Shown: positions 8,517 through 35,197, counted from the first letter of the stretch. The stretch is 64,000 nucleotides of DNA from an uncultured Alphaproteobacteria bacterium (GCA_934255405.1 CAKQNT010000001.1:34043-98042); one strand, 5' to 3'. Made by a program: numbers and translations. Notes: generated by a model from the sequence alone, not told the origin.

Positions 8517-8594
8517 CTCGGCCTCCTGTCAGCTGCCATATATATTTATTATAGCATGTTTGCCGCCGCAAATAAACGAATTTGCGCGTTTTCG

Positions 8595-18456: not shown

Positions 18457-18542
18457 TAAGTATAGCGCGGCGCTTGATTATTTAATTTTCAGTATGTATG
18501 ATAGGAAAAACAATGACAAAATCTAATCCGAGGATTGCAGAA

Positions 18543-19199
18543 ATGAACCAGAAAACATGGAAAAGCACATCTCTGATAGCGGCACTTTTGGTAGCCGGAT
18601 GCAGCACTCACGCAACAAGCAGCCCTTATGACGGCAATTCTCCTATACCTCAAGATATGGTATTAGAGCAGCCGGCTCCGGCGACAAATGTGACCACAGC
18701 CTCCGGCAAGGAGCTGATTAGCTATCGAGAAACCGCCGCGGACTACCGCGAATATGGCGAGCGTATGCCTACGGATCAGGATATTGTCAACTCCGGAGCC
18801 GGAAGCAATATGTCAGCCTCTATTCCGCCAACCATTGATGAGGAAGTTGCGGATTATGAAAACGAGGTAAATGCCGCCATTAATGAGGGCAGCAGCGATG
18901 ACAGCTCGGCGCAGTCTTCCGGCGAGGATCCGGTTGAAGACTGGCTGGCTGAGGAAGGCAGCACGCTTAAAGGGTTGTTGACAGACTGGAGCGAGCGCGC
19001 CGGCTGGAGATTGATTTGGAACAGCAACCGCAACTACACACTGGCTGCCGGCGCAATGTTCCGCGGCAGATTTGCCGATGTAAGCTCGGCTTTAATCAGA
19101 ACATTTGCCAGAGCCAGACCGGCTCCGGTTGCCACTTTTTATAAAGGAAACAGAGTCTTAGTTGTTGAGACCATGGAGGATGAGAATGCGTATGACTAA
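18543..19199 (+). CDS. PilL-like lipoprotein (TcpQ-like C-terminal domain) of type IVb pilus systems.
   Basis: Lipoprotein signal MNQKTWKSTSLIAALLVAGC. Conserved C-terminal LTDWSERAGWRLIWNS...TFYKGNRVLVV. Precedes the secretin gene as in R64/PAPI-1 pilL-pilN. Confidence 0.5.
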   Translation: MNQKTWKSTSLIAALLVAGCSTHATSSPYDGNSPIPQDMVLEQPAPATNVTTASGKELISYRETAADYREYGERMPTDQDIVNSGAGSNMSASIPPTIDEEVADYENEVNAAINEGSSDDSSAQSSGEDPVEDWLAEEGSTLKGLLTDWSERAGWRLIWNSNRNYTLAAGAMFRGRFADVSSALIRTFARARPAPVATFYKGNRVLVVETMEDENAYD

Positions 19200-20787
19200 T
19201 TGGAAAAAAATCGGACTTGGAATGCTTGTTGCGGCGTTCGCAGCCTCCTGCTCGATTTCCACAAATATGGATGCAACAATTGAGCGTGAGGTAGAAACTG
19301 CCACCCGCATGAAAGAAGAGGCCAAAGCGCCGACTGTTGTTGCCAATCAGGATTTGATTAAGGTAAAAGACGAGATTTGGCTTGGTGATTCAAGTGAAAT
19401 CGAATATGAAGGCGCCCCGATACCGGCTTATTTGGAAGGCAAGAACGGCATCACCTTGGTGAGCAACCGCCCGATTACCTTGTTTGAAATCGGCGATATG
19501 ATTAACAAAACCACCTCGCTGGGCGTGCGCTATGCTCCCCAGCTGGAAGCAGATGTAAAATCTAAAGGAGCTGCCAACAAACCTACTGTTGACAGCGTAA
19601 ACAGCGATTGGGCAGAACCGGATAAAATGCTGGTTTCTTATCAGGGTCCTTTGAGCGGATTGCTGAATGAAGTGTCTTCTCGTTTTGGAATCTGGTGGAA
19701 GTATGAGAACAAAGAGATTCACTTCTACAAGTTCGTTACCAGAACCTTTGTTGTATATAGCCTGCCAAGTAAACCGAATTTGTCGGTTAACGTCGGCGGC
19801 AGCCAGAGCGGAGGCGGCGGAAGTTCCTCCATCAGTATGAGCAGCTCGATTGAGGTTGAGATGTGGGGCAACTTTGAAAAAAGTATCTCTTCAATGATAA
19901 GCGATGGAGCAAAACTCACGATGTCGCCGGCTGACGGAACCATCACGCTGACCGCTACTCCGAACGATATTAAGAAAGTTGCAAAATACATTAACGAGCA
20001 AAATGTTCGTTTGTCTCGTCAGGTTGCCATCAGCGTAAAGATTTTGCAGGTTTCGATTACAGATACAGACGACTACGGACTTGATCTGAAAGCAACTTTT
20101 GGCGACGGCGTTACCAGTATCGGCGTCACAGGCTCTACCAGCGTAAGCTCTGCGGCCAGCGCCGGCAATACCATCACTTGGGGTATTCTGAAAGACAAAT
20201 GGACGGCCGACGCGGCGGTAAAAGCGCTTTCTCAGCGCAACAACACCAGTTTGGTTACCAGCGGCACGGTTACAACTTTGAACAACAAACCGGCACCAAT
20301 TCAGGTTACACAAAAGCAGAACTACATTGCAGAAATGACCAAGACCAACAGTGGAACCGACGGCACAAACTATGATATTTCGGTTACGACCGAAGAAGTT
20401 GAGACCGGATTCACACTTGATGTTTTGCCACGAATTTTGGAGCATGGTCGTCTGCTGGTTATGTTCAACATGACATTGTCTGACCTGTTGTCACTGGATA
20501 AAGTTGAGTTCGGCGCCTCCAGCGAGAACCAATATATTCAGAATCCGAAGATTGAATCTAGAGCATTTACCCAAGAAGTGGCTATGACCTCCGGAGAATC
20601 TTTAATTTTGACAGGTTATGAGCGCGTAAACAGCTCAACCACCAAGGAAGGCACCGGCTCAGCCGAAAACTCTTTGCTTGGCGGCTCAGCTAAAGCTCAA
20701 AAAGAACGCAGTGTTTTGGTTATTATCCTGACACCGATTGTATTGGAATCTCCGCTGTCACCGGAAGCCAGAATGTCAATGAATTAG
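19186..20787 (+). CDS. Secretin (PilN/BfpB-like lipoprotein secretin of type IVb pili).
   Basis: Lipoprotein-like signal GLGMLVAAFAASC. C-terminal secretin domain (LVTSGTVTTLNNKPAPIQV...VLVIILTPIV). Confidence 0.7.
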   Translation: MRMTNWKKIGLGMLVAAFAASCSISTNMDATIEREVETATRMKEEAKAPTVVANQDLIKVKDEIWLGDSSEIEYEGAPIPAYLEGKNGITLVSNRPITLFEIGDMINKTTSLGVRYAPQLEADVKSKGAANKPTVDSVNSDWAEPDKMLVSYQGPLSGLLNEVSSRFGIWWKYENKEIHFYKFVTRTFVVYSLPSKPNLSVNVGGSQSGGGGSSSISMSSSIEVEMWGNFEKSISSMISDGAKLTMSPADGTITLTATPNDIKKVAKYINEQNVRLSRQVAISVKILQVSITDTDDYGLDLKATFGDGVTSIGVTGSTSVSSAASAGNTITWGILKDKWTADAAVKALSQRNNTSLVTSGTVTTLNNKPAPIQVTQKQNYIAEMTKTNSGTDGTNYDISVTTEEVETGFTLDVLPRILEHGRLLVMFNMTLSDLLSLDKVEFGASSENQYIQNPKIESRAFTQEVAMTSGESLILTGYERVNSSTTKEGTGSAENSLLGGSAKAQKERSVLVIILTPIVLESPLSPEARMSMN

Positions 20788-20797
20788 GAGAACCACA

Positions 20798-22075
20798 GTG
20801 CTTGAAGAAGCCAAACTGTTAGATGATGATATAGACAACGGCTCAGCCAAAAAATCTTGGGGTTCATCCATTACCATTGATGGAGTGAGCTATGCCACAA
20901 GCCTGTTTTGGCAGCCGTTGCAAAATGCCAGCGACCCTTTTCAAGAAGTTGAAGAGGCGTCAGCCGGCGTTTTGGAAGGAGCCGACCTGTTTTGTATTAA
21001 GGGAGGCAAGGCTCCGCAGTTTGGTATCTGCGTTTCTCATGAGGGATATAAAAGCGGCGAAACGGTAGCCGCGGTTGCGTTGGCGACTTCGCTCTCCGAC
21101 ATCGGCTCGTTTATTGCGGTATTTAAGACCGCTGAGGGCTGGTGGTATACCTGTATTCGTAACGACATTATCTTGTCCGACGGCGATATGTTGTTCTTAA
21201 GCGAGGAAGAAGCCAAAGAACAGTTTTTATCTATGTTGGCTGTGCCGGATTGGGGCAAAAAAATTGCGCCCAAAGAATGGGAAATCGAAGACACGGAACA
21301 ACTCGATTTGGCCGAAGTTTTGGCTAGAGGCGCAAAATCAAAGCTGCAAAAAATTAAGGCTTTGCGCGGAGGCAAACTGTTTGCCGTGATTGCGGTTTCG
21401 GCTGTGGTCGGTTTGTGGTTGCTCTCCAGCCTAGTGGACACCCTGTTTTTGACACCGACCGTACGTCCGGTTGTTGTGCCAGTTAAACCGAAGGTAGTGC
21501 CCAAAGTAGAGCAAGTGGTAGAAGTTAAGCCGTGGGAAAAAGTGCCTAACCCCCAGCAGGTTATGAAAAACTGTTATCAGGGAATTGTGGCTCTGGATAA
21601 GATTTTGCCTCCAGGCTGGGCTATTGGAGCAATCAGTTGTAACAACGGCAGTGCCGCCACCTCATGGGTTCGTAATGTCGGGCGCGTGGCATGGGCAAAA
21701 AAAGCTTTGGATGATTCCGGACTAAAATTTTCGGGCTATAGTTTTTCTTCCAACGGCTCAAGTTTGTCGGCAACTTTGGCTCTGGACAAGGCGGAAGAGC
21801 AATTGAGCCCGCCGCAAAAACGCGCGATAGAGCTCCGTGACGAATTGAACGATACATTTCAGAGTATCGGCGTGCCTATTGCGTTGTCTACCGAAACAAC
21901 CAAATCGTCAACCGGCACGATTTATCAGATGATAAAATTTTCACTCAATTCCGAGTACAATCCTTTGACATGGCTGGATTTGTTAACAAAATATTCAGGA
22001 CTTGAGATTAAACTTATAACATATTCTCCAAACGACAAGATTTGGCATTACGAGGGGACAATCTATGTTTTGTAA
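20798..22075 (+). CDS. Bitopic inner-membrane pilus assembly protein (PilO2/BfpC-like by position). GTG start.
   Basis: Single central TM (LFAVIAVSAVVGLWLLSSLV). Position between secretin and PilP-like gene. AGGAG RBS 7 nt before GTG. Confidence 0.4.
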   Translation: MLEEAKLLDDDIDNGSAKKSWGSSITIDGVSYATSLFWQPLQNASDPFQEVEEASAGVLEGADLFCIKGGKAPQFGICVSHEGYKSGETVAAVALATSLSDIGSFIAVFKTAEGWWYTCIRNDIILSDGDMLFLSEEEAKEQFLSMLAVPDWGKKIAPKEWEIEDTEQLDLAEVLARGAKSKLQKIKALRGGKLFAVIAVSAVVGLWLLSSLVDTLFLTPTVRPVVVPVKPKVVPKVEQVVEVKPWEKVPNPQQVMKNCYQGIVALDKILPPGWAIGAISCNNGSAATSWVRNVGRVAWAKKALDDSGLKFSGYSFSSNGSSLSATLALDKAEEQLSPPQKRAIELRDELNDTFQSIGVPIALSTETTKSSTGTIYQMIKFSLNSEYNPLTWLDLLTKYSGLEIKLITYSPNDKIWHYEGTIYVL

Positions 22076-23384
22076 AATAAGAAATATTTTAAGCGTTTCC
22101 GCTTTGGCTTTGATGGTAACAGCAGGCAATAACAACCTGTATGCGCAAGGTGTTGTTACCCTCTCGGAAGATGCCATGTTTGATGATAATGACAGCGCGC
22201 CGTCTGCAAGCGTGCCGGATAATGCACCACTGTTTGGCTCTGACAATGCAGCTCCGACAGCGGCACCAAAAGTTGAGCCGAAGGCTGAACCGGCAGTTGA
22301 ACCTGTCGCCGCAGCCGAGGTTCCGTCACCGATTATGCCGGCGTCTATGCTCAACCAACCGGGGGCTGGCGTGGGAATTATAGGCACTAATGACAACGAA
22401 GAAATTGGTGATGAAGTCTTTTCTAAGATGTCTAATTTGGAAAAGCAAACGGCGTTGTTGAATCTTGAACTGCGCAGAGAGAAAGTTCAAAACGAAATTG
22501 AGGCTATCAAGAATCAGCGCAAACAGGCAATAATCCAAGAACAAGAAAAGGCCGAAGAGCAAAAGCGCAAAAAGATTGAATGGGAAAAAGAGCAAGAGCA
22601 AAAAGTTCTGCAAGAACAGCAGAAGTTGCGTGAGCTGGATATTAAATTTGAAACCGTGCGTCAGGAAAGACTGCTGAACTCTTACAAGAACGAGATGCTT
22701 ACGGCTAATCAGGAATGGATTGCTCATGAAGGCGGTCTCTATCAGCAGATTGAGGATCTGAAAAAAGAAAAACAGGCGTTGTTGGAAGATACGCAGAATA
22801 AGCTGAAAAACATTAAAGCCAGCTTTGCTAATGCTGCTACTCAGGCCGACGAAACCGTTAATGCTTATAAAAAAGAAATCGGAACCCTGAAAGAGCAGAT
22901 TAACACTCTAAACTCCAGAATTGAAGCACAAGAAAGAGAAATGGAAAGACGCAATCCGTTTGCCGATGGCGGAGTTGAGGACGGCGGTGCGGTTACGGCA
23001 TCACAAGCTGCTGATGCTATTGTTCCGGAGTTGAAACTGCAGAATATGTATGCGGTTATGGAAATTCGCGGACAAAATGGAGAGTTGATTGCCAAACTGA
23101 TTAATCAGGACGGCACACCTTTCTATGTTAAAAAAGGCACAGCACTGCAAAGCGGACATATCATCGATGACATCACCTCGACTTATGTTCGGGCAGAAAA
23201 GAACGGTATAAAAGATTATTTATACTTTGCGGCCGGCGGAATTTTGCCTCTGGAACAGCCGAAAACAACAATTACTCCTGATTTGCCGGCGGCAGAGACT
23301 GTCAAAAACACGGCTCCGGCCAAACAGGGTTTTGTAGCCAGCAACGGAATTCCGGGATTGGGACAATCAATGATGGCCAGATAA
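22065..23384 (+). CDS. Periplasmic PilP-like protein: signal peptide, coiled-coil region, C-terminal beta-rich domain.
   Basis: Signal peptide. C-terminal LKLQNMYAVMEIRGQNGELIAKLINQDGTPFYVKKGTALQSGHIIDDI resembles PilP/GspC HR-type secretin-interacting domains (inference). Confidence 0.4.
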   Translation: MFCKIRNILSVSALALMVTAGNNNLYAQGVVTLSEDAMFDDNDSAPSASVPDNAPLFGSDNAAPTAAPKVEPKAEPAVEPVAAAEVPSPIMPASMLNQPGAGVGIIGTNDNEEIGDEVFSKMSNLEKQTALLNLELRREKVQNEIEAIKNQRKQAIIQEQEKAEEQKRKKIEWEKEQEQKVLQEQQKLRELDIKFETVRQERLLNSYKNEMLTANQEWIAHEGGLYQQIEDLKKEKQALLEDTQNKLKNIKASFANAATQADETVNAYKKEIGTLKEQINTLNSRIEAQEREMERRNPFADGGVEDGGAVTASQAADAIVPELKLQNMYAVMEIRGQNGELIAKLINQDGTPFYVKKGTALQSGHIIDDITSTYVRAEKNGIKDYLYFAAGGILPLEQPKTTITPDLPAAETVKNTAPAKQGFVASNGIPGLGQSMMAR

Positions 23385-23387
23385 ACC

Positions 23388-25073
23388 ATGGCAGAAGCGG
23401 AAGAAGAGAAACAAAACGGTAATATCGAGCAGACGGCATCAGACACAACAGCTGGTGCCGCCGCTGAATCTTTGGCGTCAAGCAAAGCTGAAGGTGAAAA
23501 AAAATCTTCTATTGTCGAAACTTATTTCTCTAACGGCAACCGCCTGTTGACTTTGCAGGGATCTTCGCTGGTTATTAATGACGATACCAGACGTTTGTTG
23601 GCTCTGTTTTCAGACGGGCGTTTTCTGGTGGTTGAGAGCCACAAATTTGATGGCCGCGTCTTGAGCTTTGAGGTTTTGGCCAGAAAAAAACGCTTGGCTA
23701 TTCTGAAACCAACCTATGTTTCCCAAAATGAAATTAATGCCATATACAGTATCGGTGAGCGCGCTCAAGCTGAAGTTGACGTACGCGAGGATAGCGAACT
23801 TGACCAGCTGCAAATGCAGAAGGACTTTGTCAATGTGATTGCCCGCGCGGCAGCGCAAAAGGTTTCCGATGTGCACGTTATTGTGGCAGACAGCACCCAA
23901 ATTATGTTCCGTATTAACGGTATGATGACCACTGAGATGGAATATAACAAAGACTGGGGTGAATCTTTTGTCCGCGCGGCGTTTGCCTCAGCCGATGTAT
24001 CGGACTCCAACTATGCACAAAATGAGTTTCAGGGCGCACAAAAACTGGGCTCCACCCCTCTGCGCGGTTCTAAAGGTAAGTTGATGCTGCCGCACAATGT
24101 GTTGGCTATTCGTTTGCAGTTTAACCCGATTGCGTTTGGTTCGCAATATTTGGTTATGCGTCTGCTGTATGCCGATGACAACCCTGATGGCTCGGGCGAT
24201 TTGGCCAGTTTGGGATTTGGCGAGTTTGAAGAAAACTTGTTCTATCGTCTGCGCGCCGTTCCGGTGGGGCTGAATATTATTGCCGGACCGACCGGCTCCG
24301 GAAAATCTACAACACTGCAAAGAAATATGATTAAACTTTTGCAGGAGAAGAATTACGAAATTAACCTGATTACGGTGGAAGACCCGCCGGAGTATCCTAT
24401 TCCCGGTGCGCGCCAAATGCCGGTGACAAACGCCAACACCGAAGAAGAAAAAGATGAACAATTTACTAAAGCGCTGTCTGCGGCTTTGCGTTCTGACCCT
24501 GATGTTATGATGGTCGGCGAGGTGCGCTCACTATCAGCAGCGCAACTGACATTTAAGGGCGCGCTGTCCGGACACGGTGTTTGGACAACCCTGCACGCCA
24601 ACTCTGCACCGGCAATTTTGATGCGTCTGCGCGATATGGGTGTTGAGACATTTAAGCTGCTGGATCCGGAACTGATAAAAGGCCTGATTTCGCAGCGTTT
24701 GTTCCGCAAGCTCTGCCCGCATTGCCGGATTTCCGTAAAAGAGCGACTGAATGATCTTTCGGTACAGCGGCTTAAGGTTGCACTGGGCGATTTTGGGGTG
24801 GAAAATACTTATGTCCGCGGTCCGGGGTGCAAATATTGCGGCAATACAGGCATTAAAGGCCGAATGAGCGTGCCGGAGATAGTTTTGCCCGATGCAATGT
24901 TTTTGGAGCTGATGATTAAAGGCGAAACCCGCAAAGCGATTGATTATTGGACCAGCGACCTTAACGGCAGAACGCTTAAAGAAGCCGCAATTGAGCGCAT
25001 GCTCAAAGGATTGATTGATCTTGATGAAGTCGAGCGCTGGTGCGGATTGATGGATCAGCGACCGGTATACTAG
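23388..25073 (+). CDS. Type IV pilus assembly ATPase, GspE/PilB/TcpT family (PilQ-like of R64 system).
   Basis: Walker A GPTGSGKST, Asp box and His box (MMVGEVRS...GHGVWTTLHAN), tetracysteine motif CPHCR...CKYCGNTG. Confidence 0.85.
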   Translation: MAEAEEEKQNGNIEQTASDTTAGAAAESLASSKAEGEKKSSIVETYFSNGNRLLTLQGSSLVINDDTRRLLALFSDGRFLVVESHKFDGRVLSFEVLARKKRLAILKPTYVSQNEINAIYSIGERAQAEVDVREDSELDQLQMQKDFVNVIARAAAQKVSDVHVIVADSTQIMFRINGMMTTEMEYNKDWGESFVRAAFASADVSDSNYAQNEFQGAQKLGSTPLRGSKGKLMLPHNVLAIRLQFNPIAFGSQYLVMRLLYADDNPDGSGDLASLGFGEFEENLFYRLRAVPVGLNIIAGPTGSGKSTTLQRNMIKLLQEKNYEINLITVEDPPEYPIPGARQMPVTNANTEEEKDEQFTKALSAALRSDPDVMMVGEVRSLSAAQLTFKGALSGHGVWTTLHANSAPAILMRLRDMGVETFKLLDPELIKGLISQRLFRKLCPHCRISVKERLNDLSVQRLKVALGDFGVENTYVRGPGCKYCGNTGIKGRMSVPEIVLPDAMFLELMIKGETRKAIDYWTSDLNGRTLKEAAIERMLKGLIDLDEVERWCGLMDQRPVY

Positions 25074-25080
25074 GAGTAAG

Positions 25081-26217
25081 ATGATGGCAGAAGATAAGAT
25101 TAAAAGAAAACCCAAATCTTTGCAAAATGCGATGATAAAACTTAATGTCATCGAGGAATATTATGCCAAAATGATTATCATCTTCTCTAACAAGGTGCGA
25201 CTGAAAATGTATCGCAAAATTGCCTCGTTAATGAAGAACCGTTTCTCCCTGATGGACGCGTTGGATATGTTGCATGACGGCGCCAGCAACGGAGGCAAAA
25301 ACCCCGGCGAGCCGCTGGCAATTGCTATTGCCGCATGGGGCAAGGCCTTGAACAATGGTAAAACATTTTCTGATGCGCTTAAGGGCTGGGCGCCGGCACG
25401 AGAAAGGCTTATGCTTTCGGTTGGCGATGTGTCCGATTTGGAGAGCGCTCTTCTGAACCTGATTAAGGTTACCGAGGGTTCTACCAAGATGATACGTCCG
25501 ATTATCGGGGCGATTGCCTACCCGAGCTTTTTGATGATGATGTCTGTATTGATTATTTATGCCATCGGCGTTTATATGGTGCCACCAATGATTGATGCCG
25601 CGCCTAATGTAGTTTGGCATGGTATGGCGCGAGATTTGGTAAATTTATCCGACTGGATTAAAGACAATTGGCTGATAGCCTTTTTGTCCTTGCCGGTGAT
25701 AATGGCAGTAATATATTTTACAATCGGTATCTGGACTGGCAAAATCCGCGCCTATTTTGACTGCATTCCGCCATGGTCTTTGTATAAGGTATTTACCGGC
25801 ATCAGCTGGTTGCTGGCTTTGTCGGCGTTGGTAAAAGGCGGCACGCCGGTTTCTACGGCTATGCGCGCGTTGCGGAGAGATGCCAGCAGATATTTGCGCG
25901 AACGCATTGATAAGACACTGGTCTTTATTAATAACGGTGACAACCTCGGGCAAGCACTGGCCAAAACCGGACTTAATTTTCCGGATAAAGAAATTATTGG
26001 CGACCTTAAAATTTATTCTGAGTTGGATAACTTTGAAGAGGCTTTGGATAATCTGGCTAATGATTGGTTGGAAGAATCCGTATATATGATTGAAGAGAAA
26101 GCCGGAATCTTAAACATGGTTGCCCTATTGGCTATCGGCGGTGTTATTGCTTGGGCGGTTATGGGCACATTTGAAATGCAAGACCAAATTACCAGCGGCA
26201 TGGGAGGCGGAGCTTAA
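25081..26217 (+). CDS. GspF/PilC-family inner-membrane platform protein (PilR-like).
   Basis: 378 aa, three TM segments with GspF-like spacing. Follows the ATPase gene. Confidence 0.7.
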   Translation: MMAEDKIKRKPKSLQNAMIKLNVIEEYYAKMIIIFSNKVRLKMYRKIASLMKNRFSLMDALDMLHDGASNGGKNPGEPLAIAIAAWGKALNNGKTFSDALKGWAPARERLMLSVGDVSDLESALLNLIKVTEGSTKMIRPIIGAIAYPSFLMMMSVLIIYAIGVYMVPPMIDAAPNVVWHGMARDLVNLSDWIKDNWLIAFLSLPVIMAVIYFTIGIWTGKIRAYFDCIPPWSLYKVFTGISWLLALSALVKGGTPVSTAMRALRRDASRYLRERIDKTLVFINNGDNLGQALAKTGLNFPDKEIIGDLKIYSELDNFEEALDNLANDWLEESVYMIEEKAGILNMVALLAIGGVIAWAVMGTFEMQDQITSGMGGGA

Positions 26218-26218
26218 G

Positions 26219-26785
26219 ATGAAAATACAAAAGATTATCAAGTCTCTGAAACACTACAACCGAACAATTGCCGCAATAGCAACAATCTTGCTGGCAATAC
26301 TTGGGGTGTCGGTTTTTATCTTTAGCGAAGAAGACAACGGGATTAGCGCCGCCGCAGAAGAATTATCAGAGCTTTCCGGCAATATAAGGCACCATTATCA
26401 GGCGCGGCCAGATTATTGGGGACTGAACACGCAAACGGTGATTGATAAAAAGATTTATCCGGCGCAAATGCTGAAAAACGGCAAACTTGTCGGATTTATG
26501 GGCAATACTGTATTGGTTGGTTCCGGAATTGAAGGCACTATGCTGATGCCCGGAGCGCGCAATTTTGATGTTGTTTATAAGGGGCTAAGCTCTAAACAGT
26601 GTGTCGGGCTTGGCAGCCATAAATTTGAGCAAAAGTTTTGGCTGGGTGTCAGCGGCGTTTCTATCTTGAGTGATAATCAGGAAACCTTGTTTAACTGGGA
26701 TGATGAGAACAACCGCCTGCCGATTTCTAAAGCTCAAGCAAAGAAATCTTGCGGAAACAATAGCATTATAATCTGGCATTTCTAA
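26219..26785 (+). CDS. Small N-terminally membrane-anchored protein (188 aa) at end of pilus operon.
   Basis: ATG at 26219 right after the platform gene stop. N-terminal TM. No prepilin G-x4-E motif. Confidence 0.4.
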   Translation: MKIQKIIKSLKHYNRTIAAIATILLAILGVSVFIFSEEDNGISAAAEELSELSGNIRHHYQARPDYWGLNTQTVIDKKIYPAQMLKNGKLVGFMGNTVLVGSGIEGTMLMPGARNFDVVYKGLSSKQCVGLGSHKFEQKFWLGVSGVSILSDNQETLFNWDDENNRLPISKAQAKKSCGNNSIIIWHF

Positions 26786-26922
26786 GAATCGACGCAATCA
26801 ATTTTTGCCTTGAGATAAAGATGGATTGCTTCTCACGGCTAATCGCCGTTCGCGCAATGACATTAGAGAAGATGGCTATTGCAGCTCACTACGTTCGGGG
26901 CTCGGGATAGTGTACTTTTAAA

Positions 26923-26990
26923 AAAAACTGTCACCGCTCCGAGTGGCGAGCATTCTCGCCCGAGGTCAAGCGGTCTTCCGTGTTGATATA
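26923..26990. repeat. Left ~65-bp inverted repeat of GIY-YIG mini-element (contains internal palindrome GGCGAGCATTCTCGCC).
   Basis: Reverse complement matches 27421-27488 with about 4 mismatches. Confidence 0.7.
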
Positions 26991-27044
26991 CTACATTGGA
27001 AAAATAATATATATTGCGTTATTGCACAATGTTTATACACTTAT

Positions 27045-27341
27045 CTACAAGTCACCGCTCAGCTCAGGGTATAAGTCTTTCCATAACGGATTAAGCTGAT
27101 TTATTAATTTTATTTTAGTCTTGCTATAACATTTTTTCAGGTATTTTTCTCGCCTGATAGCTTGTTCTTCGCCATCTATTTTTTCAAAATACACCAGTTT
27201 AAATAATTCATATCGGCTGGAAAATCCAGAAAGTATTTTATTTTTATGCTCATAGACACGGCGAATTAAATCAGATGTAACACCGGTGTAAAACGTAGTG
27301 TTATTTTTATTGGTTAAAATATATACAAACATCTCTTTCAT
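27045..27341 (-). CDS. GIY-YIG nuclease domain protein (UPF0213/YhbQ-like, 98 aa).
   Basis: Motif FVYILTNKNNTTFYTGVTSDLIRRVYEH (GIY...YIG). Confidence 0.7.
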   Translation of the reverse strand: MKEMFVYILTNKNNTTFYTGVTSDLIRRVYEHKNKILSGFSSRYELFKLVYFEKIDGEEQAIRREKYLKKCYSKTKIKLINQLNPLWKDLYPELSGDL

Positions 27342-27420
27342 AATATCAGGTTAGTCTATAATCAGCGCTAAGACAAGAGAATTTTTTCTTAGAATAAAAT
27401 TAAAATTGCTCCTAAACATT

Positions 27421-27488
27421 ATTTTAACAGCACGGAAGATCGCTTGACCTCGGGCGAGAATGCTCGCCGCTCGGAGCGATGACAGTTT
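27421..27488. repeat. Right inverted repeat of GIY-YIG mini-element.
   Basis: See left repeat. Confidence 0.7.
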
Positions 27489-27539
27489 TTTTATTTTATA
27501 TGCAATAGTAAAGAGGCATAAAAAAGAGGATGGAGGCAT

Positions 27540-27577
27540 AAAAAAAGAGGAGAGCCACCACACTCTCCTCTTTTTTA
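27540..27577. terminator. Bidirectional rho-independent terminator (AGAGGAGAG/CTCTCCTCT hairpin flanked by A- and T-runs) downstream of pilin gene.
   Basis: Seen in sequence. Confidence 0.6.
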
Positions 27578-27592
27578 ATCTTATGATTAGGA

Positions 27593-28219
27593 CTAGTAGT
27601 AAGTCCACGTAATCGTACTACCACTATCCTTAGCGGTACATTCAGCAGCAGCTGCTGAAAGTGACAAAGGCAAGCTATCAATTGTGTGCGGTGTACCACC
27701 TTTATCTCCAATATCCTTATCGTCTTTACTCGGAGAAACCGCTATAGACTGCAAACCAGAACCGGCTTGAGAACCCCAGTCAGCAGTAGCTATAGCTACG
27801 CAAGCCTCCAACGGCAAACCTGAATAAGAAACCGTAAACTGACGACTGTCACCACCAGTTCCACCTTGTGTATCTACAGCAACTTCAACTCGTCCGGAAT
27901 AAGCGTTCACAATAGTAGTTGCACCACTACCAGCTCCGGCAGACGCAATACTTGACTGAAGCATATCTCTGGGAATAATACCCATCTGAACCGCAACTTT
28001 GTTACTCAAACCAGCGTAGTTTACGGCAGAAGAATAAAGTGTACGGATATTCATAACCAGCATAGAAATCTGGTCAAGCGTCTTATTAACACGATATTTT
28101 GACATTGCTTTAGAATAACCGGAGATACCACCTATCGAAAGCACCCCGATAATCGCGAGCACGCCGAGCATTTCGACCATCGAACGTCCTGACTGCTCAT
28201 TTTTATATAATATTGTCAT
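27593..28219 (-). CDS. Type IV (class b-like) prepilin. Leader MTILYKNEQSG, mature start RSMVEMLGVLAIIGVLS. C-terminal Cys pair (D-region).
   Basis: Gly followed by Glu at +5 and a 20-residue hydrophobic helix. Two Cys near the C-terminus. Adjacent to the T4bP assembly operon. Confidence 0.7.
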   Translation of the reverse strand: MTILYKNEQSGRSMVEMLGVLAIIGVLSIGGISGYSKAMSKYRVNKTLDQISMLVMNIRTLYSSAVNYAGLSNKVAVQMGIIPRDMLQSSIASAGAGSGATTIVNAYSGRVEVAVDTQGGTGGDSRQFTVSYSGLPLEACVAIATADWGSQAGSGLQSIAVSPSKDDKDIGDKGGTPHTIDSLPLSLSAAAAECTAKDSGSTITWTYY

Positions 28220-28506: not shown

Positions 28507-29895
28507 TTATTTGCCGGACTTAATCCGTTCAATAAGTTCTTTTACCGAGGGTATGCCGTTGCGATACAACGGATCTGTGGCAAAACGATATACCTGATGT
28601 CCGGCAAACAACAAATTGTCTACAATACTGCCATTGTGGCTGACATCGTATAGGGTTTTGTGAATGCAATAAGAACGCGGATCCGGCAGTCTTCCAGTAC
28701 TGCCTTTGCTCTGAGACCACGAAGAAAACTGACATTGCGACAAGCATCCAACGCAATTTTTGCGATCTTCTTTCATCTGCACCCACTCATCAGGGGTTAG
28801 GAACACAACCGTGTTATCCGGAGTTTCCTTTATTTCGGTGTAGCCGGATTTCTGCTGATTTGCCGCTTTTTCGGCGTCTGCCGCACGGATATACACGCGC
28901 TTATTTTCGGTTAACTGCAAAGGATGGCAAAACTCCTCCGTCGCCTCGACAGAAAAAGGAACTTCGCCTTGTTTGCGCTCAATCAGGCGAGAAAGAAACG
29001 TGTTTTTAATCGCCGAAGAGAAAAATCCGGTCGGGCTGAATTTTTGCAAAATAACATCGCCTTTTTTTACCTGAAGCATAAGCCGTTTCCACGCATCGCT
29101 AATCGGGCTCTCTTTGGTTATCATCGGACGAGTGCCAAACTGAAACGCCAATTTGCCAATTTCGGGATTATCGATATAATCCTGCCAATCTTCCAGCGCC
29201 CAAATGCCGCCCGCCAAAATAATCGGCTTCTCTTGCAAGCCAAGCTCATTCATAAGCTTGCGCAATTCAACCAGCCGCATATAAGGAGTTTGCGGCTCAG
29301 AGGGATTTTCGGCATTGGTAAGACCGTTGTGTCCGCCGGCAAGCCACGGATCCTCATAAACAACGCCACCCAAAAATTCAACAAAACGATTATATGCGCG
29401 CTTCCACAAAATCTGAAAAGCCCGCGCGGAAGAAACTATCGGATAGTAGTACACTCCGTATTTGGAGGCGATTTCGCCCAGATTATAAGGCAAGCCCGCG
29501 CCGCAGGTTACTCCGTGAATCAAGCCTTTGGCTCTCTCCAGCACACCATTTAGAATTTGTTGAGAACCGGCCAGCTCCCACAGCATATTTAGGTGAATAC
29601 GCCCGTTGCCGTTGGAGACTTCGTGAGCTATCTGCGCTTGAGCAACACAGCCTTTGATTGACTGTTCAATCATTTCTTCGTGTCTTGAGGGGCGGTCTTT
29701 TTTGAAGTAACGCTCAAAGATGACATTGCCTTTGTCATCGTAATAGTCTGGGCTGACGCCGGAAAAGGTGCCGACGCAATTCTCATGCGCCCATGCGCCG
29801 CTGGAATTTCCGTCACTACCGTTAATGCCTTTTCCGCCTTCTATCAGAGGCAACACCTCTTTGCCGGAAATCAATATCGGATTTAGTGTTTTCAA
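28507..29895 (-). CDS. Nitronate monooxygenase / 2-nitropropane dioxygenase-family FMN oxidoreductase-like protein with Cys-rich C-terminus.
   Basis: TIM-barrel NMO-like motifs (ILAGGIW, GAGLPYN). Assignment by pattern only. Confidence 0.4.
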   Translation of the reverse strand: MKTLNPILISGKEVLPLIEGGKGINGSDGNSSGAWAHENCVGTFSGVSPDYYDDKGNVIFERYFKKDRPSRHEEMIEQSIKGCVAQAQIAHEVSNGNGRIHLNMLWELAGSQQILNGVLERAKGLIHGVTCGAGLPYNLGEIASKYGVYYYPIVSSARAFQILWKRAYNRFVEFLGGVVYEDPWLAGGHNGLTNAENPSEPQTPYMRLVELRKLMNELGLQEKPIILAGGIWALEDWQDYIDNPEIGKLAFQFGTRPMITKESPISDAWKRLMLQVKKGDVILQKFSPTGFFSSAIKNTFLSRLIERKQGEVPFSVEATEEFCHPLQLTENKRVYIRAADAEKAANQQKSGYTEIKETPDNTVVFLTPDEWVQMKEDRKNCVGCLSQCQFSSWSQSKGSTGRLPDPRSYCIHKTLYDVSHNGSIVDNLLFAGHQVYRFATDPLYRNGIPSVKELIERIKSGK

Positions 29896-29942: not shown

Positions 29943-31394
29943 TTATGGAGCTAATTCAAGCAACATTTGCGGCATATTATTTATAGACACCAGAGCAATA
30001 ACTACACAAATCAAAGCATATACCTGCAACATATCGGTTAATCCCTTGTTTTTGAAGGGGGGAATCAGTTTCTGATATTTGTAGATAAGATGATGAACAC
30101 CAACCAGCCCCAATGTGGCTAAGATTGCCTGCATACCAAGACCAATATCGTGCAGAATCGCGGCAAAGGGCTGAAGAATCTTGAACATCATACCAAAAAA
30201 CAACATATATGTCCCGATAACCGCGATGGAAATGCGCTTGAGCTTAATATCCAAAGCCTGTTTAATGCTCTTGTCGTGCTCAACCTTTTCTTGCGACAAG
30301 TCCGCAACATCTATGCCGCGCACTTTTTCGGGAGTTTGCTTTTGCTTTTTGATATCGTGCATATCATGATAAAATTTGTCTTCCATAATGCACAAACCGC
30401 AGCCTTTGGCGGTGAAATACACGTGATTGGGATTGTTTTTGCACTGGCGCAGGTGGTGCATGAGCTTCCACAAATGCTCTTGCCACTCATAAGCACTGGG
30501 ACGGTTGCCGCCTTTGGCAAAGGCGCGTTCAAACATCTGCAACGTGTCTTTGTCGAAATAACTGTGAATGCTGTAAGGGTGAGGCGCCTGATATTTATCC
30601 GGCCAAAGTCCATAGGCATAGTGATATTGCTCTATGCGGTTTTGAATGGTGAGCATATCATCATCTGCTTTGTGCGGAACGCCCGAAAAAGGATGAATGC
30701 CATTGTTGAGAAGTTTGAAAATGATAACCGCCAGCGCAAATTTATCCTGCTCTTCTCCCATATCCTGACAAGCCAGTTTCATACCCTCGGGGTAAATATA
30801 TTCCTCACTGACAAATTCTGCCGGATAGCGCCCTTTTTCTCCTTTGATGGAGAATCCATCGCAGTCAACCATTGCCACCAACATATTGTTTTTGTATACA
30901 GAAACATTGGACGGCTTGAGGTCAACAATATAGTGTCCGCATTTATGCAAAGAGGTAACCATAGAGGCAACATTGTATGCGGCAAAAATCCGATAAGCGT
31001 ATTTTTCCGACAAGCCAAGCTTTTTGCGGATTGCTTTTTGCATAAGGTGGTCCAGCGATACCGCCGCATCCATATTTATTAACGGCATCAGATAGCCAAC
31101 GCAAAATCCTTGTCCGTCTTCCAGCAGTGCCTCCGGCCACGCAATTTGAGTATAAGACACTCCACCCTCTTCCACCGGCGGAAAATGCGGCTTGTTGAGC
31201 AGCATAGCCTCAAGTTTTTGGCGGTTGGTCTGGCTTTTGTTGGTGTTATGAAAAATCTTAGCCACAAGCTCGGGACGCCCTTCGACCTTATAAATCTTGC
31301 CAGAAGCGCCGCCGCGGTTTATCATCTCGCCCAGAGTGACTGTGCCAAAAGACCTATCGGCATAAACGGCATTATATGTAATCTCCGCTACCAT
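29943..31394 (-). CDS. Eukaryotic-like Ser/Thr protein kinase with C-terminal transmembrane helices.
   Basis: Gly-rich loop RGGASGKIY, VAKIF lysine, catalytic loop VDLKPSNV, DCDGF (DFG-like). Confidence 0.75.
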   Translation of the reverse strand: MVAEITYNAVYADRSFGTVTLGEMINRGGASGKIYKVEGRPELVAKIFHNTNKSQTNRQKLEAMLLNKPHFPPVEEGGVSYTQIAWPEALLEDGQGFCVGYLMPLINMDAAVSLDHLMQKAIRKKLGLSEKYAYRIFAAYNVASMVTSLHKCGHYIVDLKPSNVSVYKNNMLVAMVDCDGFSIKGEKGRYPAEFVSEEYIYPEGMKLACQDMGEEQDKFALAVIIFKLLNNGIHPFSGVPHKADDDMLTIQNRIEQYHYAYGLWPDKYQAPHPYSIHSYFDKDTLQMFERAFAKGGNRPSAYEWQEHLWKLMHHLRQCKNNPNHVYFTAKGCGLCIMEDKFYHDMHDIKKQKQTPEKVRGIDVADLSQEKVEHDKSIKQALDIKLKRISIAVIGTYMLFFGMMFKILQPFAAILHDIGLGMQAILATLGLVGVHHLIYKYQKLIPPFKNKGLTDMLQVYALICVVIALVSINNMPQMLLELAP

Positions 31395-31395
31395 T

Positions 31396-32139
31396 TCAGT
31401 TTACCTTTATCCATACCAGCGTTTTGTCATCTGAATTAATCCGTTGCGCTTTGGGCGTATTGAGCGTGTTGGCCAAAGCCTTTACCGCTTTGGGCTTGTT
31501 TTGCGCCTCTTCCAAAAACTTATCTATCGGTCTGATAAAGCCTTGCTCTATTCGCTGCCAATCCGCAGAAAAGGAAAAACACGCAACACCATCGCTCATC
31601 AAAAACAATGTGGAGGCGTTGTCAAACCACGTCAGACGCAGATTCTCAGACCACTCTTGCTGGGTATAAAAATAAGTTTCACACGAGAAATTGCCGTTTT
31701 CCGGACGAGAGGCAACAAAGTCTTCGTATCCGCTGCGTACGGCTATGGCCGCTCCGTCGCCGATATGAAAAAACATTCCCTTGCCGCCGCGACAAACCAC
31801 TCCGACAATTGTGGCGGCAAAATCTGTTATGCCGGATTCTGATTTGGCGGAATTTAGGCGGTGCAAAACCAGTTTTTCTCTTGAAAGAACAACCGCGCGG
31901 CGCACCACCTCCGGCCAATCGGGCATATTGGCATTTTTGAGCAAGTCACAAAGTGTGGAACATACAACTCTGGCGCCGATTTTTCCTAATCTGGCAGAGC
32001 CGGCTCCATCAGAAACCACCGCCACCAGATTCTTGCCGCGAGCGTGTCTGAAATGATCCTGACACGGCAGATTTCTGTGGTTGTGCAAAGCTCCGGTCAC
32101 ACTTGCCGCAACAATTTTCGGAGCGCTAGTCTTCTTCAT
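31396..32139 (-). CDS. PP2C-family Ser/Thr phosphatase.
   Basis: Motifs VSDGAGSARLG, HIGDGAA, LMSDGV. Start set at MKKTSAPK. Confidence 0.65.
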   Translation of the reverse strand: MKKTSAPKIVAASVTGALHNHRNLPCQDHFRHARGKNLVAVVSDGAGSARLGKIGARVVCSTLCDLLKNANMPDWPEVVRRAVVLSREKLVLHRLNSAKSESGITDFAATIVGVVCRGGKGMFFHIGDGAAIAVRSGYEDFVASRPENGNFSCETYFYTQQEWSENLRLTWFDNASTLFLMSDGVACFSFSADWQRIEQGFIRPIDKFLEEAQNKPKAVKALANTLNTPKAQRINSDDKTLVWIKVN

Positions 32140-32812
32140 CCCATTCTCCGGTATCTTCCAGCAAATCCGGAGCATTGGGAGCAGCCCTTGAAATACAGGA
32201 AACACTGCGGCTCAGCCACAGGAAAAACTCGGTAAACTTTAATCCGGTGAGGCGCTTGGGCGACATAGTCGAAAACTTTGCCAATTTTTCAAGATTGGCG
32301 CCCTGTGTTCCAACCGCGTGAATCACCACTTTTTTGTTCTCTTGAGCAATCCGGCATTTTTTGGCAATAGTCTCCCAGTCATAATCCGTCGGCTCGCCAT
32401 CGCTGATTAAGAATATCCACGGGCGTTTTGAGGTTATGCCGCAACTATCATAGAGGCATTTTTGCTCTTCTATCTTGCGCAGAGCCAGCTCCATGGCCTT
32501 GCCAAGCGGCGTAAGCCCTCCGGCTACCATGGTCGGAGCATCAAAATTCATGGCGTCTGTCCAATCTGAAGATATAACCGCCTCATCTTTGCCAAACGCC
32601 TTAATAATCAGCAACTGCACGCGCGAGCTGGCGTCTATGTCGTCTTTGAGTTCGCGCTCCAAAGCCTTGAGACCGGCATTCAGCTGTTTAATCGGCTCGC
32701 CACGCATGGAGCCGGAACAATCCAGCACCAAAACGCAGGGGGTGCGCTCATTGGCATTGTCCGCAAACTCTACATAAGGAATCATCTCATTTTCAATATC
32801 AGAATCTACCAT
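32126..32812 (-). CDS. von Willebrand factor A (vWA) domain protein.
   Basis: MIDAS DCSGSM...SDGEPTD. AAGGAG RBS before MVDSDIEN. ORF-track 5' extension rejected. Confidence 0.7.
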   Translation of the reverse strand: MVDSDIENEMIPYVEFADNANERTPCVLVLDCSGSMRGEPIKQLNAGLKALERELKDDIDASSRVQLLIIKAFGKDEAVISSDWTDAMNFDAPTMVAGGLTPLGKAMELALRKIEEQKCLYDSCGITSKRPWIFLISDGEPTDYDWETIAKKCRIAQENKKVVIHAVGTQGANLEKLAKFSTMSPKRLTGLKFTEFFLWLSRSVSCISRAAPNAPDLLEDTGEWDEED

Positions 32813-32826
32813 CGGAGGCTCCTTAG

Positions 32827-32949
32827 TCAGTTGCGAGGATAGGTGTGAGGATATCCACTGCCCGGAACAGGCTCGGGAGCAGCCAATTTGCCGCAGGAAA
32901 CCACACAAATTGTGCCCAGCAGCAGTAATAAACTCAAATATTTTTTCAT
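32827..32949 (-). CDS. Small lipoprotein (40 aa) MKKYLSLLLLLGTICVVSCGKLAAPEPVPGSGYPHTYPRN, heading the vWA-PP2C-kinase cassette.
   Basis: Found by manual translation (below ORF-track size cutoff). Signal peptide plus VVSC lipobox. Confidence 0.35.
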   Translation of the reverse strand: MKKYLSLLLLLGTICVVSCGKLAAPEPVPGSGYPHTYPRN

Positions 32950-33034
32950 AACAATTCCTTTACTTGTTCTTTGCTATAATATAATTATATAGCCAATAAG
33001 AGTTAAGTAAAAATTAAGTTATACAGAGAAACAG

Positions 33035-33556
33035 ATGATAAAAAAATTGTTGATTTTGGTCATGGCGCTTGTCTGGTGCGAAAACGCAGCAGCCAAAAGC
33101 GGGCTTAATCTTTTTGCCTACCCGCGCGAGGCTCCAAAAACGCCGATTTATACTCCGGCCGGACAGGCGCTGAAATTGTCTGATTTTAAGGGAGAATTTC
33201 TGCTGGTGATGTTTTGGTCGCGCTACTGCGCTCCCTGCATTAAAGAGCTTGACGATATTAACGAATTTGTTTTGAAAACCCGCAACAACGGTATAAAGGT
33301 TCTTCTGGTTTCTAAAGACGATGAATGGACCGATGTGACGGAACAGCGCGAGTTACTCAAAAAATACAAAGCGCCAGATGTGGATTTCTATACCGACAAA
33401 GACGGCAAACTCTCCGGCGACTTTGGCATATTTTCTTCGCCGCACACCGTATTGGTCAATACTAAAAGCGAAGAAATCGGAAGAATCCGCGGTTCGGTTG
33501 ACTGGGGAGACGATGATGTTATTGAGTACATTTATAAAATAAAAGCACAAAATTAG
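33035..33556 (+). CDS. Periplasmic thiol:disulfide oxidoreductase, TlpA/ResA-like thioredoxin.
   Basis: Signal peptide. CAPC active-site motif in thioredoxin fold context. Confidence 0.65.
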   Translation: MIKKLLILVMALVWCENAAAKSGLNLFAYPREAPKTPIYTPAGQALKLSDFKGEFLLVMFWSRYCAPCIKELDDINEFVLKTRNNGIKVLLVSKDDEWTDVTEQRELLKKYKAPDVDFYTDKDGKLSGDFGIFSSPHTVLVNTKSEEIGRIRGSVDWGDDDVIEYIYKIKAQN

Positions 33557-33564: not shown

Positions 33565-33993
33565 ATGACCGAAAAAATCTATATCAACTGGAATGAATTT
33601 CACAGTGATGTCAAAGCATTGGCGCAACAGCTAGAAAAACGCGGGCAGTTCAATCGTATTGTTGCCGTGAGCCGCGGCGGTCTGATTCCGGCGGGTGTTT
33701 TGGCTTATGAACTGAATATCCGTAATTGTGAAGCGATAAATATCTCAAGCTATGACAACGAATCGAAGCGCGAGGATACGGCGATTGAAATCGGAACAGT
33801 TTTGCACCATGCCGATGAGCACACTCTGATTGTTGATGATTTGGCTGACAGCGGACGCACATTGCAGATTTTGCACAAACTATACCCAAGCGCAACGCTG
33901 GCTTGTGTTTATGTAAAACCTGAAGGACAAAAGTATTGCAATATATATGCTAAACAGCTGCCCAATCAATGGGTGGTATTCCCTTGGGATTAG
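33565..33993 (+). CDS. gpt: Xanthine-guanine phosphoribosyltransferase.
   Basis: Strong colinearity with Gpt (AVSRGGLIPAGVLAYELNIR, IVDDLADSGRT, C-terminal FPWD). Confidence 0.85.
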   Translation: MTEKIYINWNEFHSDVKALAQQLEKRGQFNRIVAVSRGGLIPAGVLAYELNIRNCEAINISSYDNESKREDTAIEIGTVLHHADEHTLIVDDLADSGRTLQILHKLYPSATLACVYVKPEGQKYCNIYAKQLPNQWVVFPWD

Positions 33994-34991
33994 GAAACAT
34001 CTACAAATAACGGTAATCCGCGAGCCATACGAGTCATTTGGGTTTCGATAGAAGTGCCCAAATTGGGGCGTCCGCTCTTGACAATTCCGCGCACCTGATC
34101 GCCTTTGGTGGTATCGGGGTTGGCGAATAAAAACGAAACCACGGCTTTTTTGATAGTTGTTCCAACCAAACTTTGGTGCAGAACTCCAAGCATACCGCGA
34201 GAAAACAAATCATAGGCCAAATCCTCGCTCATACCGCCGGCAGCGGCATATTTGACAACCGAAGTTATGGCATCTGTAACATTGTTGGCATGAATGGTTG
34301 AAAGAACCAAGTGTCCGGAAGTCGATGCGCGCAAAACTTCGCTGGCCGTATCAGGAGTGCGGATTTCTCCAACCATGATATAACGCGGTTTTGAGCGTAG
34401 TGCCGATTTCAGCGAAGCACCCCAATCTCCGCCCGCCGGCTGTGTCTGCTTGCAGAGCCCCAGCCCTCCGTTAGCGCACTTATAAACTCCATCCAGCGGT
34501 TGCTCATTGGGATCTTCAATGGTATAAGCGAATCCGCCTTCTCTAATCAGATATTCCTTAGTTAAACTGGAGATAGAGGTTGTTTTGCCGGAGCCGGTCG
34601 GACCACTCCACAAAATAAGTCCGGATGCATTTTTTAAGGCCAGCAAATAGCGCTCAAGCTGCTTTGGATAACCCAAAGAAGCAAACGCGGGGACTTCCGC
34701 CGGCATGCGGCGGGCGCAATACTGAATGCCATCCAGTGCAACCGTTCTTTCGACACGATAAAAGATATTATTGTAGACGATTGAATAGCTGGGGTTCTGA
34801 CCATCCCAAGAGCTTTCGACCAGAGCATAAAACTTATCAAAATCTTCCGGCGCAAACTGCATCAAGGCATTAGCAGTCTGTTTATTAGGGATAAACGCTT
34901 GTTTTTCCGGAGTAATATATATGTCGGAGAATTGTGTTTCGGTAATAGTTGTCATGGCCAACCTCGTTTGAAATTTTTGTGATATTGGCAT
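33990..34991 (-). CDS. PilT/VirB11-superfamily secretion ATPase, PilT-like by His-box (GHLVLSTIHAN).
   Basis: Walker A GPTGSGKTT, Asp box MVGEIRT, His box. 333 aa. Confidence 0.65.
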   Translation of the reverse strand: MPISQKFQTRLAMTTITETQFSDIYITPEKQAFIPNKQTANALMQFAPEDFDKFYALVESSWDGQNPSYSIVYNNIFYRVERTVALDGIQYCARRMPAEVPAFASLGYPKQLERYLLALKNASGLILWSGPTGSGKTTSISSLTKEYLIREGGFAYTIEDPNEQPLDGVYKCANGGLGLCKQTQPAGGDWGASLKSALRSKPRYIMVGEIRTPDTASEVLRASTSGHLVLSTIHANNVTDAITSVVKYAAAGGMSEDLAYDLFSRGMLGVLHQSLVGTTIKKAVVSFLFANPDTTKGDQVRGIVKSGRPNLGTSIETQMTRMARGLPLFVDVS

Positions 34992-35095: not shown

Positions 35096-35172
35096 ATGGC
35101 GCCAGCGGCGGGACTTGAACCCACTACCCACAGTTTAGGAAACTGTTGCTCTATCCTGATGAGCTACGCCGG
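35096..35172 (-). tRNA. tRNA-Arg (anticodon CCT).
   Basis: Manual fold: acceptor GCCGGCG, D-arm GCTC/GAGC, anticodon stem ACAGT with loop TTCCTAA, T-arm GTGGG-TTCAAGT-CCCGC, CCA end encoded. Confidence 0.75.
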
Positions 35173-35197
35173 CGTCATTTGTTTTATACTCGGAAGC

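Follow-up and report, generated by a model that had tools for sequence, protein, structure and literature searches.

A lineage-conserved operon that probably encodes a YegL-PphC-YegI-type Ser/Thr phosphorylation switch in uncultured gut Alphaproteobacteria

In Escherichia coli K-12, the genes yegL, pphC (yegK) and yegI encode a vWA-domain protein, a PP2C phosphatase and a Ser/Thr kinase, respectively, and their order is identical to that of three genes of the locus described here, a four-gene minus-strand cassette at positions 29,943 to 32,949 of a 64,000-nucleotide (nt) stretch of DNA from an uncultured Alphaproteobacteria bacterium (GCA_934255405.1 CAKQNT010000001.1:34043-98042; the whole of this stretch is called the window below). 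YegI is an active, autophosphorylating kinase that is inserted in the membrane and has no sensor domain (10.1101/819920). It is dephosphorylated by PphC, of which residue D46 has been mutated in published work (10.1101/303594). Overproduction of YegL and of YegI each raises endogenous DNA damage in E. coli (10.1101/354589). The cassette in the window places a fourth gene, for a lipoprotein of only 40 amino acids (aa), in front of the triad. We know of no condition under which yegL-pphC-yegI has been found to be robustly expressed in E. coli.

A related set of three genes is the TerY-P (TerY-phosphorylation) triad, the description of which is reportedly due to Anantharaman, Iyer and Aravind in 2012, and Gao et al. 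in 2020 are said to have identified TerY-P as a stand-alone defence system. It consists of a TerY-like vWA protein, a PP2C phosphatase and a Ser/Thr kinase fused to a zinc ribbon, and a phosphorylation-dependent switch has been predicted for it (PMC10542128; PMC4978471). A further point of comparison is offered by the regulatory network of the archaellum in Sulfolobus, in which the C-terminal region of the vWA protein ArnB undergoes phosphorylation (PMC6509490), and in which a vWA phospho-acceptor, the Ser/Thr kinases ArnC and ArnD and a phosphatase likewise make up a switch (PMC6509490, PMC12852372). ArnA/ArnB is an analogue of the present system, not a homologue at the level of the operon: ArnB is extended by beta-sandwich and helix-bundle domains and requires the FHA protein ArnA, and the phosphatase is PP2A there and PP2C here. 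No FHA domain was found in the neighbouring open reading frames (ORFs) scanned within the 64-kb window.

To judge from its sequence, the operon in the window is a copy of the known vWA, PP2C and Ser/Thr kinase triad of the YegL-PphC-YegI or TerY-P type, and we consider it probable that it is a chromosomal, lineage-conserved operon for a reversible Ser/Thr phosphorylation switch of that type. The initial annotation, made from the sequence of the window, had referred to such triads as a known module, which is correct, since the three proteins are homologous to YegL, PphC and YegI and the gene order is kept. It had also described four adjacent or overlapping minus-strand genes; all four were recovered at the claimed coordinates by ORF calling (Table 1), and the tight operon structure is borne out, with two gene starts corrected. 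Read from the sequence, the vWA gene begins with the ATG at 32812 (228 aa) and not with the TTG that opens the longest ORF. It is thus clear of the lipoprotein gene, whose stop codon is separated from this ATG by a 14-nt spacer holding an AAGGAG ribosome-binding site. The PP2C gene most likely starts at the ATG at 32139 (247 aa), overlapping the 3' end of the vWA gene by 14 nt, and 1 nt separates its stop codon from the kinase ATG. In related loci the vWA/PP2C spacing is typically -11 nt and the PP2C/kinase spacing -4 to +8 nt. A terminator scan found no terminator-like site between the lipoprotein and vWA genes, nor between the kinase gene and the next one. It did return a terminator-like hairpin across the vWA/PP2C overlap (32221-32205), which was treated as chance, the scan having given 12 sites against 6.1 +/- 2.9 expected. 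A promoter-like site lies ahead of the lipoprotein gene, in the 85 bp that separate it from a divergent TlpA-like gene. On these grounds the four genes are taken to be an operon of tightly packed, translationally coupled arrangement.

Table 1. Positions of the cassette genes and of surrounding features, counted from the first nucleotide of the window.
Feature	Position	Strand	Remarks
Micro-lipoprotein gene	32827-32949	-	40 aa, signal peptide and lipobox
Lipoprotein mature peptide, about 21 aa: CGKLAAPEPVPGSGYPHTYPRN	within 32827-32949	-	lipobox VVSC
vWA/MIDAS gene	32126-32812	-	228 aa, cytoplasmic, YegL/TerY-type homologue
PP2C phosphatase gene	31396-32139	-	247 aa, PphC/YegK homologue
Kinase gene	29943-31394	-	483 aa, Hanks-type Ser/Thr kinase, YegI homologue
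Promoter-like site TTTACT-16-TATAAT	32984..33011	-	consensus scan, 10/12 matches, prediction only
TlpA/ResA-like periplasmic thiol:disulfide oxidoreductase gene	33035..33556	+	CAPC motif, signal peptide; Pfam AhpC-TSA/Redoxin, NCBIfam TlpA/ResA
NMO/FabK-like flavoenzyme gene	28507-29895		462 aa, Cys-rich C-terminal extension
PilT/DotB-like ATPase gene	33990-34991		333 aa, stand-alone
tRNA-Arg(CCT) gene	35097-35173		between PilT-like ATPase and M20 deacylase genes
Type IVb (TCP/BFP-like) pilus cluster	16852-28219	+	TcpQ-like, secretin, T2SSE ATPase, T2SSF platform, bundlin/PilS-like pilin (26120-26785)
Pilus cluster ORFs	16852-18456, 20798-22075, 22065-23384		no Pfam match
Second bundlin/PilS-like pilin gene	27593-28219	-
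GIY-YIG gene	27045-27341	-	98 aa
Inverted repeat arms	26921-26993, 27420-27492		73 nt, 90% complementary
Type IV secretion/conjugation-like block	2982-16002	-	divergent; several large ORFs without family match
VirB4/TrbE-like ATPase gene	8595-11024	-	in the preceding block
Gene with TrbC/VirB2-like segment	11537-15310	-	1257 aa, same block
TrbC-like gene	15367-16002	-	211 aa, same block

The vWA protein matches Pfam VWA (1.4e-6) and is 43% identical to E. coli YegL over its full length in a pairwise comparison (E 2e-50); members of the lineage are named 'uncharacterized protein YegL' in the databases. The MIDAS motif, on whose integrity the initial annotation had made its reading depend, is intact, as D31-x-S33-x-S35, T101 and D138 are invariant in 64 aligned sequences and in E. 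coli YegL. The AlphaFold2 (AF2) model has a classical vWA fold (predicted local distance difference test, pLDDT, 78.7) with a disordered C-terminal tail, residues 207-228, that opens with an invariant S208-R-x-x-P212. Foldseek matches of this model in the PDB are vWA domains, among them the archaeal ArnAB complex 8s05; a PDB search with the sequence of the vWA protein returned no match. The PP2C protein matches Pfam PP2C_2 (8e-38) and aligns with E. coli PphC along its full length at 23% identity (BLASTP, E 3e-12). Its conserved aspartates in the lineage alignment are D28, D44, D128, D183 and D237/238, of which D44 aligns with the PphC metal-site residue D46.

The kinase matches Pfam Pkinase (8e-10), the profile match being confined to the C-lobe, and BLASTP aligns it with YegI at 28% identity (E 1e-30) over the kinase domain and the C..H..CxxC element that follows. 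Its layout comprises a kinase domain (about residues 18-310), a zinc knuckle C318-x5-H324-x7-C332-x2-C335, a linker and a hydrophobic tail (about 385-476). The four knuckle residues C318, H324, C332 and C335 are invariant in the lineage alignment, and so are the G-loop, K46, D158-L-K160-P-S-N163, D177-C-D179-G-F, P202-E203, D217 and R298; in the activation segment, position 196 is the sole site limited to Ser or Thr (56 S, 6 T). Hydropathy and the AF2 model give the tail 2-3 predicted membrane helices (AF2 helices 368-401, 403-417, 419-439 and 450-471) and suggest no extracytoplasmic domain. The tail is poorly conserved in sequence and would behave as an anchor, like the one reported for YegI. 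No domain C-terminal to the kinase domain was found in the Pfam scan, and in particular no OB-fold, HhH or topoisomerase-type zinc ribbon. A PDB sequence search gave weak generic kinase matches alone (RSK, E about 1e-3). Hundreds of close relatives of about 484 aa, 67-100% identical, all come from metagenome-assembled genomes (MAGs) of uncultured gut Alphaproteobacteria. In an exhaustive profile-free search with clustering at 50% identity, 732 kinase clusters (E <= 1e-30) share query residues from about 18 to 340, that is, the kinase domain and the knuckle, while their total lengths run from 355 to 1145 aa, so that the C-terminal parts vary; the membrane tail is found in one other cluster only (P0361, 490 aa). 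The domain calls of the initial annotation (vWA/MIDAS, PP2C, Ser/Thr kinase with a membrane tail, lipoprotein) are borne out.

The likeness to the E. coli triad extends to gene order, tight coupling, an intact MIDAS, a C-H-C-C knuckle after the kinase domain, and a membrane-anchored kinase devoid of an extracytoplasmic sensor domain, as described for YegI (10.1101/819920). On the other hand, the kinase has 483 aa here and 648 aa in E. coli, the C-terminal cytoplasmic region of YegI, with a weak HhH match, being absent. Its catalytic loop is a canonical DLKPSN, followed by DCDGF, whereas YegI has DVNQNS and DSDSF. Upstream of the vWA gene there is a lipoprotein gene and a divergent TlpA-like gene, whereas in E. 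coli the ibsA/sibA toxin locus occupies this place. The TerY-P triads share the three-part architecture and a Ser/Thr kinase followed by a zinc-binding element (PMC10542128), but the present operon has no OB-fold or other nucleic-acid-binding tail and no linked DNA- or RNA-processing genes, and its chromosomal position is fixed. The DNA damage caused by YegL and YegI overproduction fits the DNA-binding tails of most family members, and since that tail is missing here, this lineage may have a different output.

In soil, freshwater, marine and other metagenomes, about 35 distant loci, with a vWA identity of 39-69%, all preserve vWA-PP2C-kinase as the gene order. The kinases inspected among them are about 640-740 aa long, and some (L114, L138) end in HhH and C4 zinc-ribbon domains of the topoisomerase type, whereas the lineage kinase ends directly after the hydrophobic tail. 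No redoxin neighbour was detected beside the distant triads. A lipobox regular expression for small lipoproteins, applied upstream of 27 of these loci, gave a single, spurious match, a negative that is indicative only, since the expression recovered no more than 6 of 9 positive controls. One distant locus (L132) has two tandem vWA paralogues. Two modest things are new in the window's operon: its kinase is truncated, with nothing but a membrane tail at the C-terminus, and it has a micro-lipoprotein that is strictly conserved.

Conservation of the cassette was followed in about 110 loci of uncultured gut and rumen Alphaproteobacteria by tblastn with the proteins of the window. A one-genome-per-species scan contributed 66 loci, including Proteobacteria bacterium CAG:495 and MAGs from human, deer, sheep and rabbit gut, and a metagenome scan seeded with the vWA protein contributed 43 more; the genome scan was seeded with exact kinase peptides, which retrieves close relatives only and cannot reveal lineage genomes without the cassette. 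Counting only loci with enough flank, the lipoprotein gene lies directly upstream of the vWA gene in 97 of 99 (the two tblastn misses, L034 and L093, contain the gene by eye), the divergent TlpA-like redoxin gene is present in 90 of 90, the PP2C gene comes next after the vWA gene in 97 of 99, and the kinase gene next after PP2C in all 89. The kinase gene is followed by an NMO-like gene in 59 and by an M20 deacylase gene in 15 of 78 loci, and 42 of 73 have a PilT-like ATPase gene no more than 2.5 kb upstream. The outer neighbours thus vary while a five-gene block, the redoxin gene and the lipoprotein-vWA-PP2C-kinase cassette, is essentially invariant. The vWA gene is the slowest-evolving one of the neighbourhood: its identity to the window copy is 77-97% across the lineage, with a median of 88.6%, and the median is 80% for the NMO-like gene, 73% for the PilT-like gene, 69% for the kinase, 65% for M20, 58.5% for PP2C, 54.5% for gpt, and about 52.5% and 52.6% for the lipoprotein and the redoxin, respectively.

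The four-gene order was therefore found to be conserved in other genomes, as the initial annotation had proposed to check, across the approximately 110 lineage loci and, for vWA-PP2C-kinase, in the distant ones. Its placing of the cassette in an accessory, island-borne region does not agree with these data: the block is present in every related species genome recovered, and its vWA gene is the most conserved of the neighbourhood. The cassette is a fixed, strongly selected part of the chromosome of this lineage and not an accessory insertion. The GC content over the region is unremarkable. A patchy distribution, as of islands or mobile elements, was not seen, position and content being fixed in the lineage loci. 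Only one close match is on a contig labelled viral, a fragment of 5 kb in which the bacterial synteny is retained. This 5.2-kb contig (L148, IMGVR_UViG_3300024268_003428) carries the redoxin-lipoprotein-vWA-PP2C block with a vWA identity of 93% and is most probably a piece of bacterial DNA that has been wrongly classed as viral.

The lipoprotein is the product of the first gene of the operon. In an alignment of 27 family members the signal peptide varies, the Cys is invariant, and the mature part, about 21-28 aa long, follows the consensus CGK.S.P.P..SGYPH[TS]YP. Its predicted N-terminus consists of M-K-K, a hydrophobic run and [SAGC][AGSC]C-G-K, with C19 invariant in the alignment. In 84 distinct DNA versions, the invariant C, G, Y, P, Y and P residues use all synonymous codons, including all four for Pro and all four for Gly, so that the small ORF is a translated gene under selection at the protein level. 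The protein database holds 273 clusters of the family, all of about 40-57 aa. In about 99 loci only about 10-30 nt, with a ribosome-binding site and no terminator, lie between this gene and the vWA gene. We regard the lipoprotein as a new, lineage-specific first gene of the operon and as a testable candidate partner of the triad.

As a mechanism we propose a membrane-tethered kinase/PP2C switch that acts on or through a MIDAS vWA adaptor. Transcription would start at the promoter-like site in the divergent region and run through the lipoprotein, vWA, PP2C and kinase genes, whose translation would be coupled. The kinase is predicted to be catalytically competent from the conservation of its residues, with a canonical D-L-K-P-S-N loop unlike that of YegI, and its poorly conserved hydrophobic tail would hold it at the inner membrane without an extracytoplasmic sensor domain. 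By analogy with the biochemistry of the E. coli proteins, the kinase may autophosphorylate in its activation segment, at S/T196, and the PP2C phosphatase may reset this phosphorylation. The slow-evolving vWA protein would be the output or adaptor, its MIDAS presumably binding a conserved partner in a metal-dependent manner, and a site close to where its disordered C-terminal tail begins (S208-R-x-x-P212) is perhaps phosphorylated, as in archaeal ArnB. The 40-aa lipoprotein would enter as the lineage-specific first gene product. Several points weigh against this proposal. In the AF2 model the C-lobe of the kinase is poor, with a pLDDT below 50 for residues 187-278; the serines autophosphorylated in the DSD loop of YegI are replaced by C178 and G180; and the membrane topology of the kinase is a prediction only. 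Moreover, to our knowledge no substrate or physiological role of the triad is known in any organism, so that autophosphorylation with PP2C reset and the vWA output are extrapolations, and conservation alone does not exclude a role in defence. Housekeeping or stress signalling, rather than phage defence, is the most likely physiological role.

A role in defence or abortive infection had also been suggested by the initial annotation. Such an anti-phage module of the TerY-P type, or an accessory to a restriction-like system, whose kinase would sense infection and whose triad would trigger growth arrest, is in our view highly improbable. Stand-alone defence by TerY-P triads has been reported, and so has their partnership with CoCoNuT/McrBC systems (PMC10542128, PMC4978471). 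Some branches of the family may indeed sit in conflict-system contexts, for a TIR-like gene lies downstream of one distant triad (L126) and an AbiEi-like gene upstream of another (L138). Three distant triads (L149-L151) are on contigs labelled viral by IMG/VR. At the window's own locus, the PADLOC TerY model scores the vWA protein at E 0.008 (13.8 bits), which is not significant, and the E. coli YegL control at E 0.03; the PP2C protein has no PADLOC match, and the weak matches of the kinase to PD-T4-6 (4e-6) and to MkoA cover the generic kinase core only. Membership of the defence subfamily was rejected for want of a significant TerY-P match in PADLOC; the YegL control fails as well. The kinase is devoid of an OB-fold, HhH or topoisomerase-type zinc ribbon and has no nucleic-acid-binding tail of the kind that defence-type and most distant triads possess, and among the ORFs scanned in the window no nuclease, helicase or other effector adjoins the cassette. 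In every related species recovered the cassette keeps one chromosomal position under very strong purifying selection on its vWA gene; such a fixed block runs opposite to the patchy distribution and rapid turnover that typify defence islands and counts against a defence role. It is unlikely, though less so than a defence role, that the lipoprotein is unconnected to the triad and merely shares its promoter region, as an LptM/YifL-type lipoprotein of lipopolysaccharide assembly or as a partner of the redoxin. JGI gives one family member the name 'predicted small lipoprotein YifL', and Pfam LptM_cons has sub-threshold matches in 5 of the 27 members (best E 0.16), but hhalign with E. coli LptM aligns 21 columns only, which are the signal peptide, the lipobox and CG. 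Both are very small lipoproteins whose mature end starts with CG; the conserved mature motifs differ, however, as LptM has nothing corresponding to the invariant SGYPH[TS]YP and the family lacks the KGPL core of LptM, and E. coli lptM sits upstream of dapF. LptM is annotated as acting in the oxidative (disulfide) maturation of LptD, and the lipoprotein gene always has a thiol:disulfide oxidoreductase gene beside it, while no such lipoprotein was detected beside the distant triads; the short, terminator-free spacing to the vWA gene with its ribosome-binding site, kept in about 99 loci, counts against this reading. The identification with LptM is not supported, the likeness being restricted to signal peptide and lipobox.

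The setting of the cassette in the window could suggest instead that it regulates the type IVb pilus encoded nearby or the PilT-like ATPase, a reading that we hold to be quite improbable. A bundlin/PilS-type pilin gene (27593-28219) and the TcpQ-secretin-ATPase-platform cluster (16852-26785) lie on one side of the cassette and the PilT/DotB-like ATPase gene (33990-34991) on the other, so the initial annotation was right for the window in placing the cassette between pilin and ATPase genes, although NMO-like, redoxin and gpt genes intervene. A phosphorylated vWA regulator of a machine resembling type IV pili has a precedent (PMC6509490, PMC12852372), but no ArnA-like FHA partner was found nearby. 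The PilT-like gene, near in the 42 of 73 lineage loci given above, has no match near any of the approximately 35 distant triads, nor does a pilin gene, and the E. coli yegLKI genes are not beside pilus genes. About one third of the lineage loci have no pilus gene in the fetched flanks, and where the pilus genes lie on the opposite side (L042, L043, L045, L076, L078), a single inversion of the block explains this. The link with pilus loci that the initial annotation had proposed to examine is thus not kept in a third of the lineage, in the distant triads or in E. coli, and regulation of a pilus or secretion apparatus is not borne out; the closeness to pilus genes in the window is explained by synteny within the lineage together with inversions.

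Some features of the surroundings may be recorded in their own right. The NMO-like gene begins 47 nt past the kinase gene with no predicted terminator between them and may be co-transcribed with the cassette. On the other flank, the last 4 nt of the convergent gpt gene overlap the PilT-like ATPase gene, whose product scores far below every NCBIfam equivalog cut-off, the best family being ComGA/PilT at about 105 bits. The nearby tRNA-Arg(CCT) gene may mark a point of rearrangement or integration, and this could account for the variation of the PilT-like/gpt side among species. Between the two bundlin/PilS-like pilin genes, the GIY-YIG gene stands between the arms of the inverted repeat, of which a 28-nt core occurs in two places only in the window and in three in a related locus (L001), beside its own GIY-YIG copy; gene and repeats look like a small mobile or recombining element. 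Farther off, the minus-strand block at the start of the window resembles a divergent type IV secretion or conjugation system.

As a long shot, the redoxin and the lipoprotein-vWA-PP2C-kinase block might form one envelope-to-cytoplasm signalling device, in which the 21-residue lipopeptide, possibly together with the periplasmic thiol-redox state, would be the extracytoplasmic input that is missing from a YegI-type kinase with a membrane tail but no sensor domain, and the vWA protein the phospho-regulated output; if true, the orphan YegL-PphC-YegI family would thereby gain its first ligand or activator. In annotation, it would be wrong to count the cassette as a defence island or to take it for a sign of horizontal transfer. 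Worth following are the extreme conservation of the vWA protein and the invariant micro-lipoprotein and redoxin, which are found with the triad in this lineage only, and the vWA protein is the constrained component that merits study. The YegL-PphC-YegI / TerY-P triad is widespread, with 732 kinase clusters at 50% identity, and the presence of a stripped-down triad in every recovered species of this lineage, with a vWA identity of about 89%, argues for a conserved cellular function and not only for an accessory of conflict systems.

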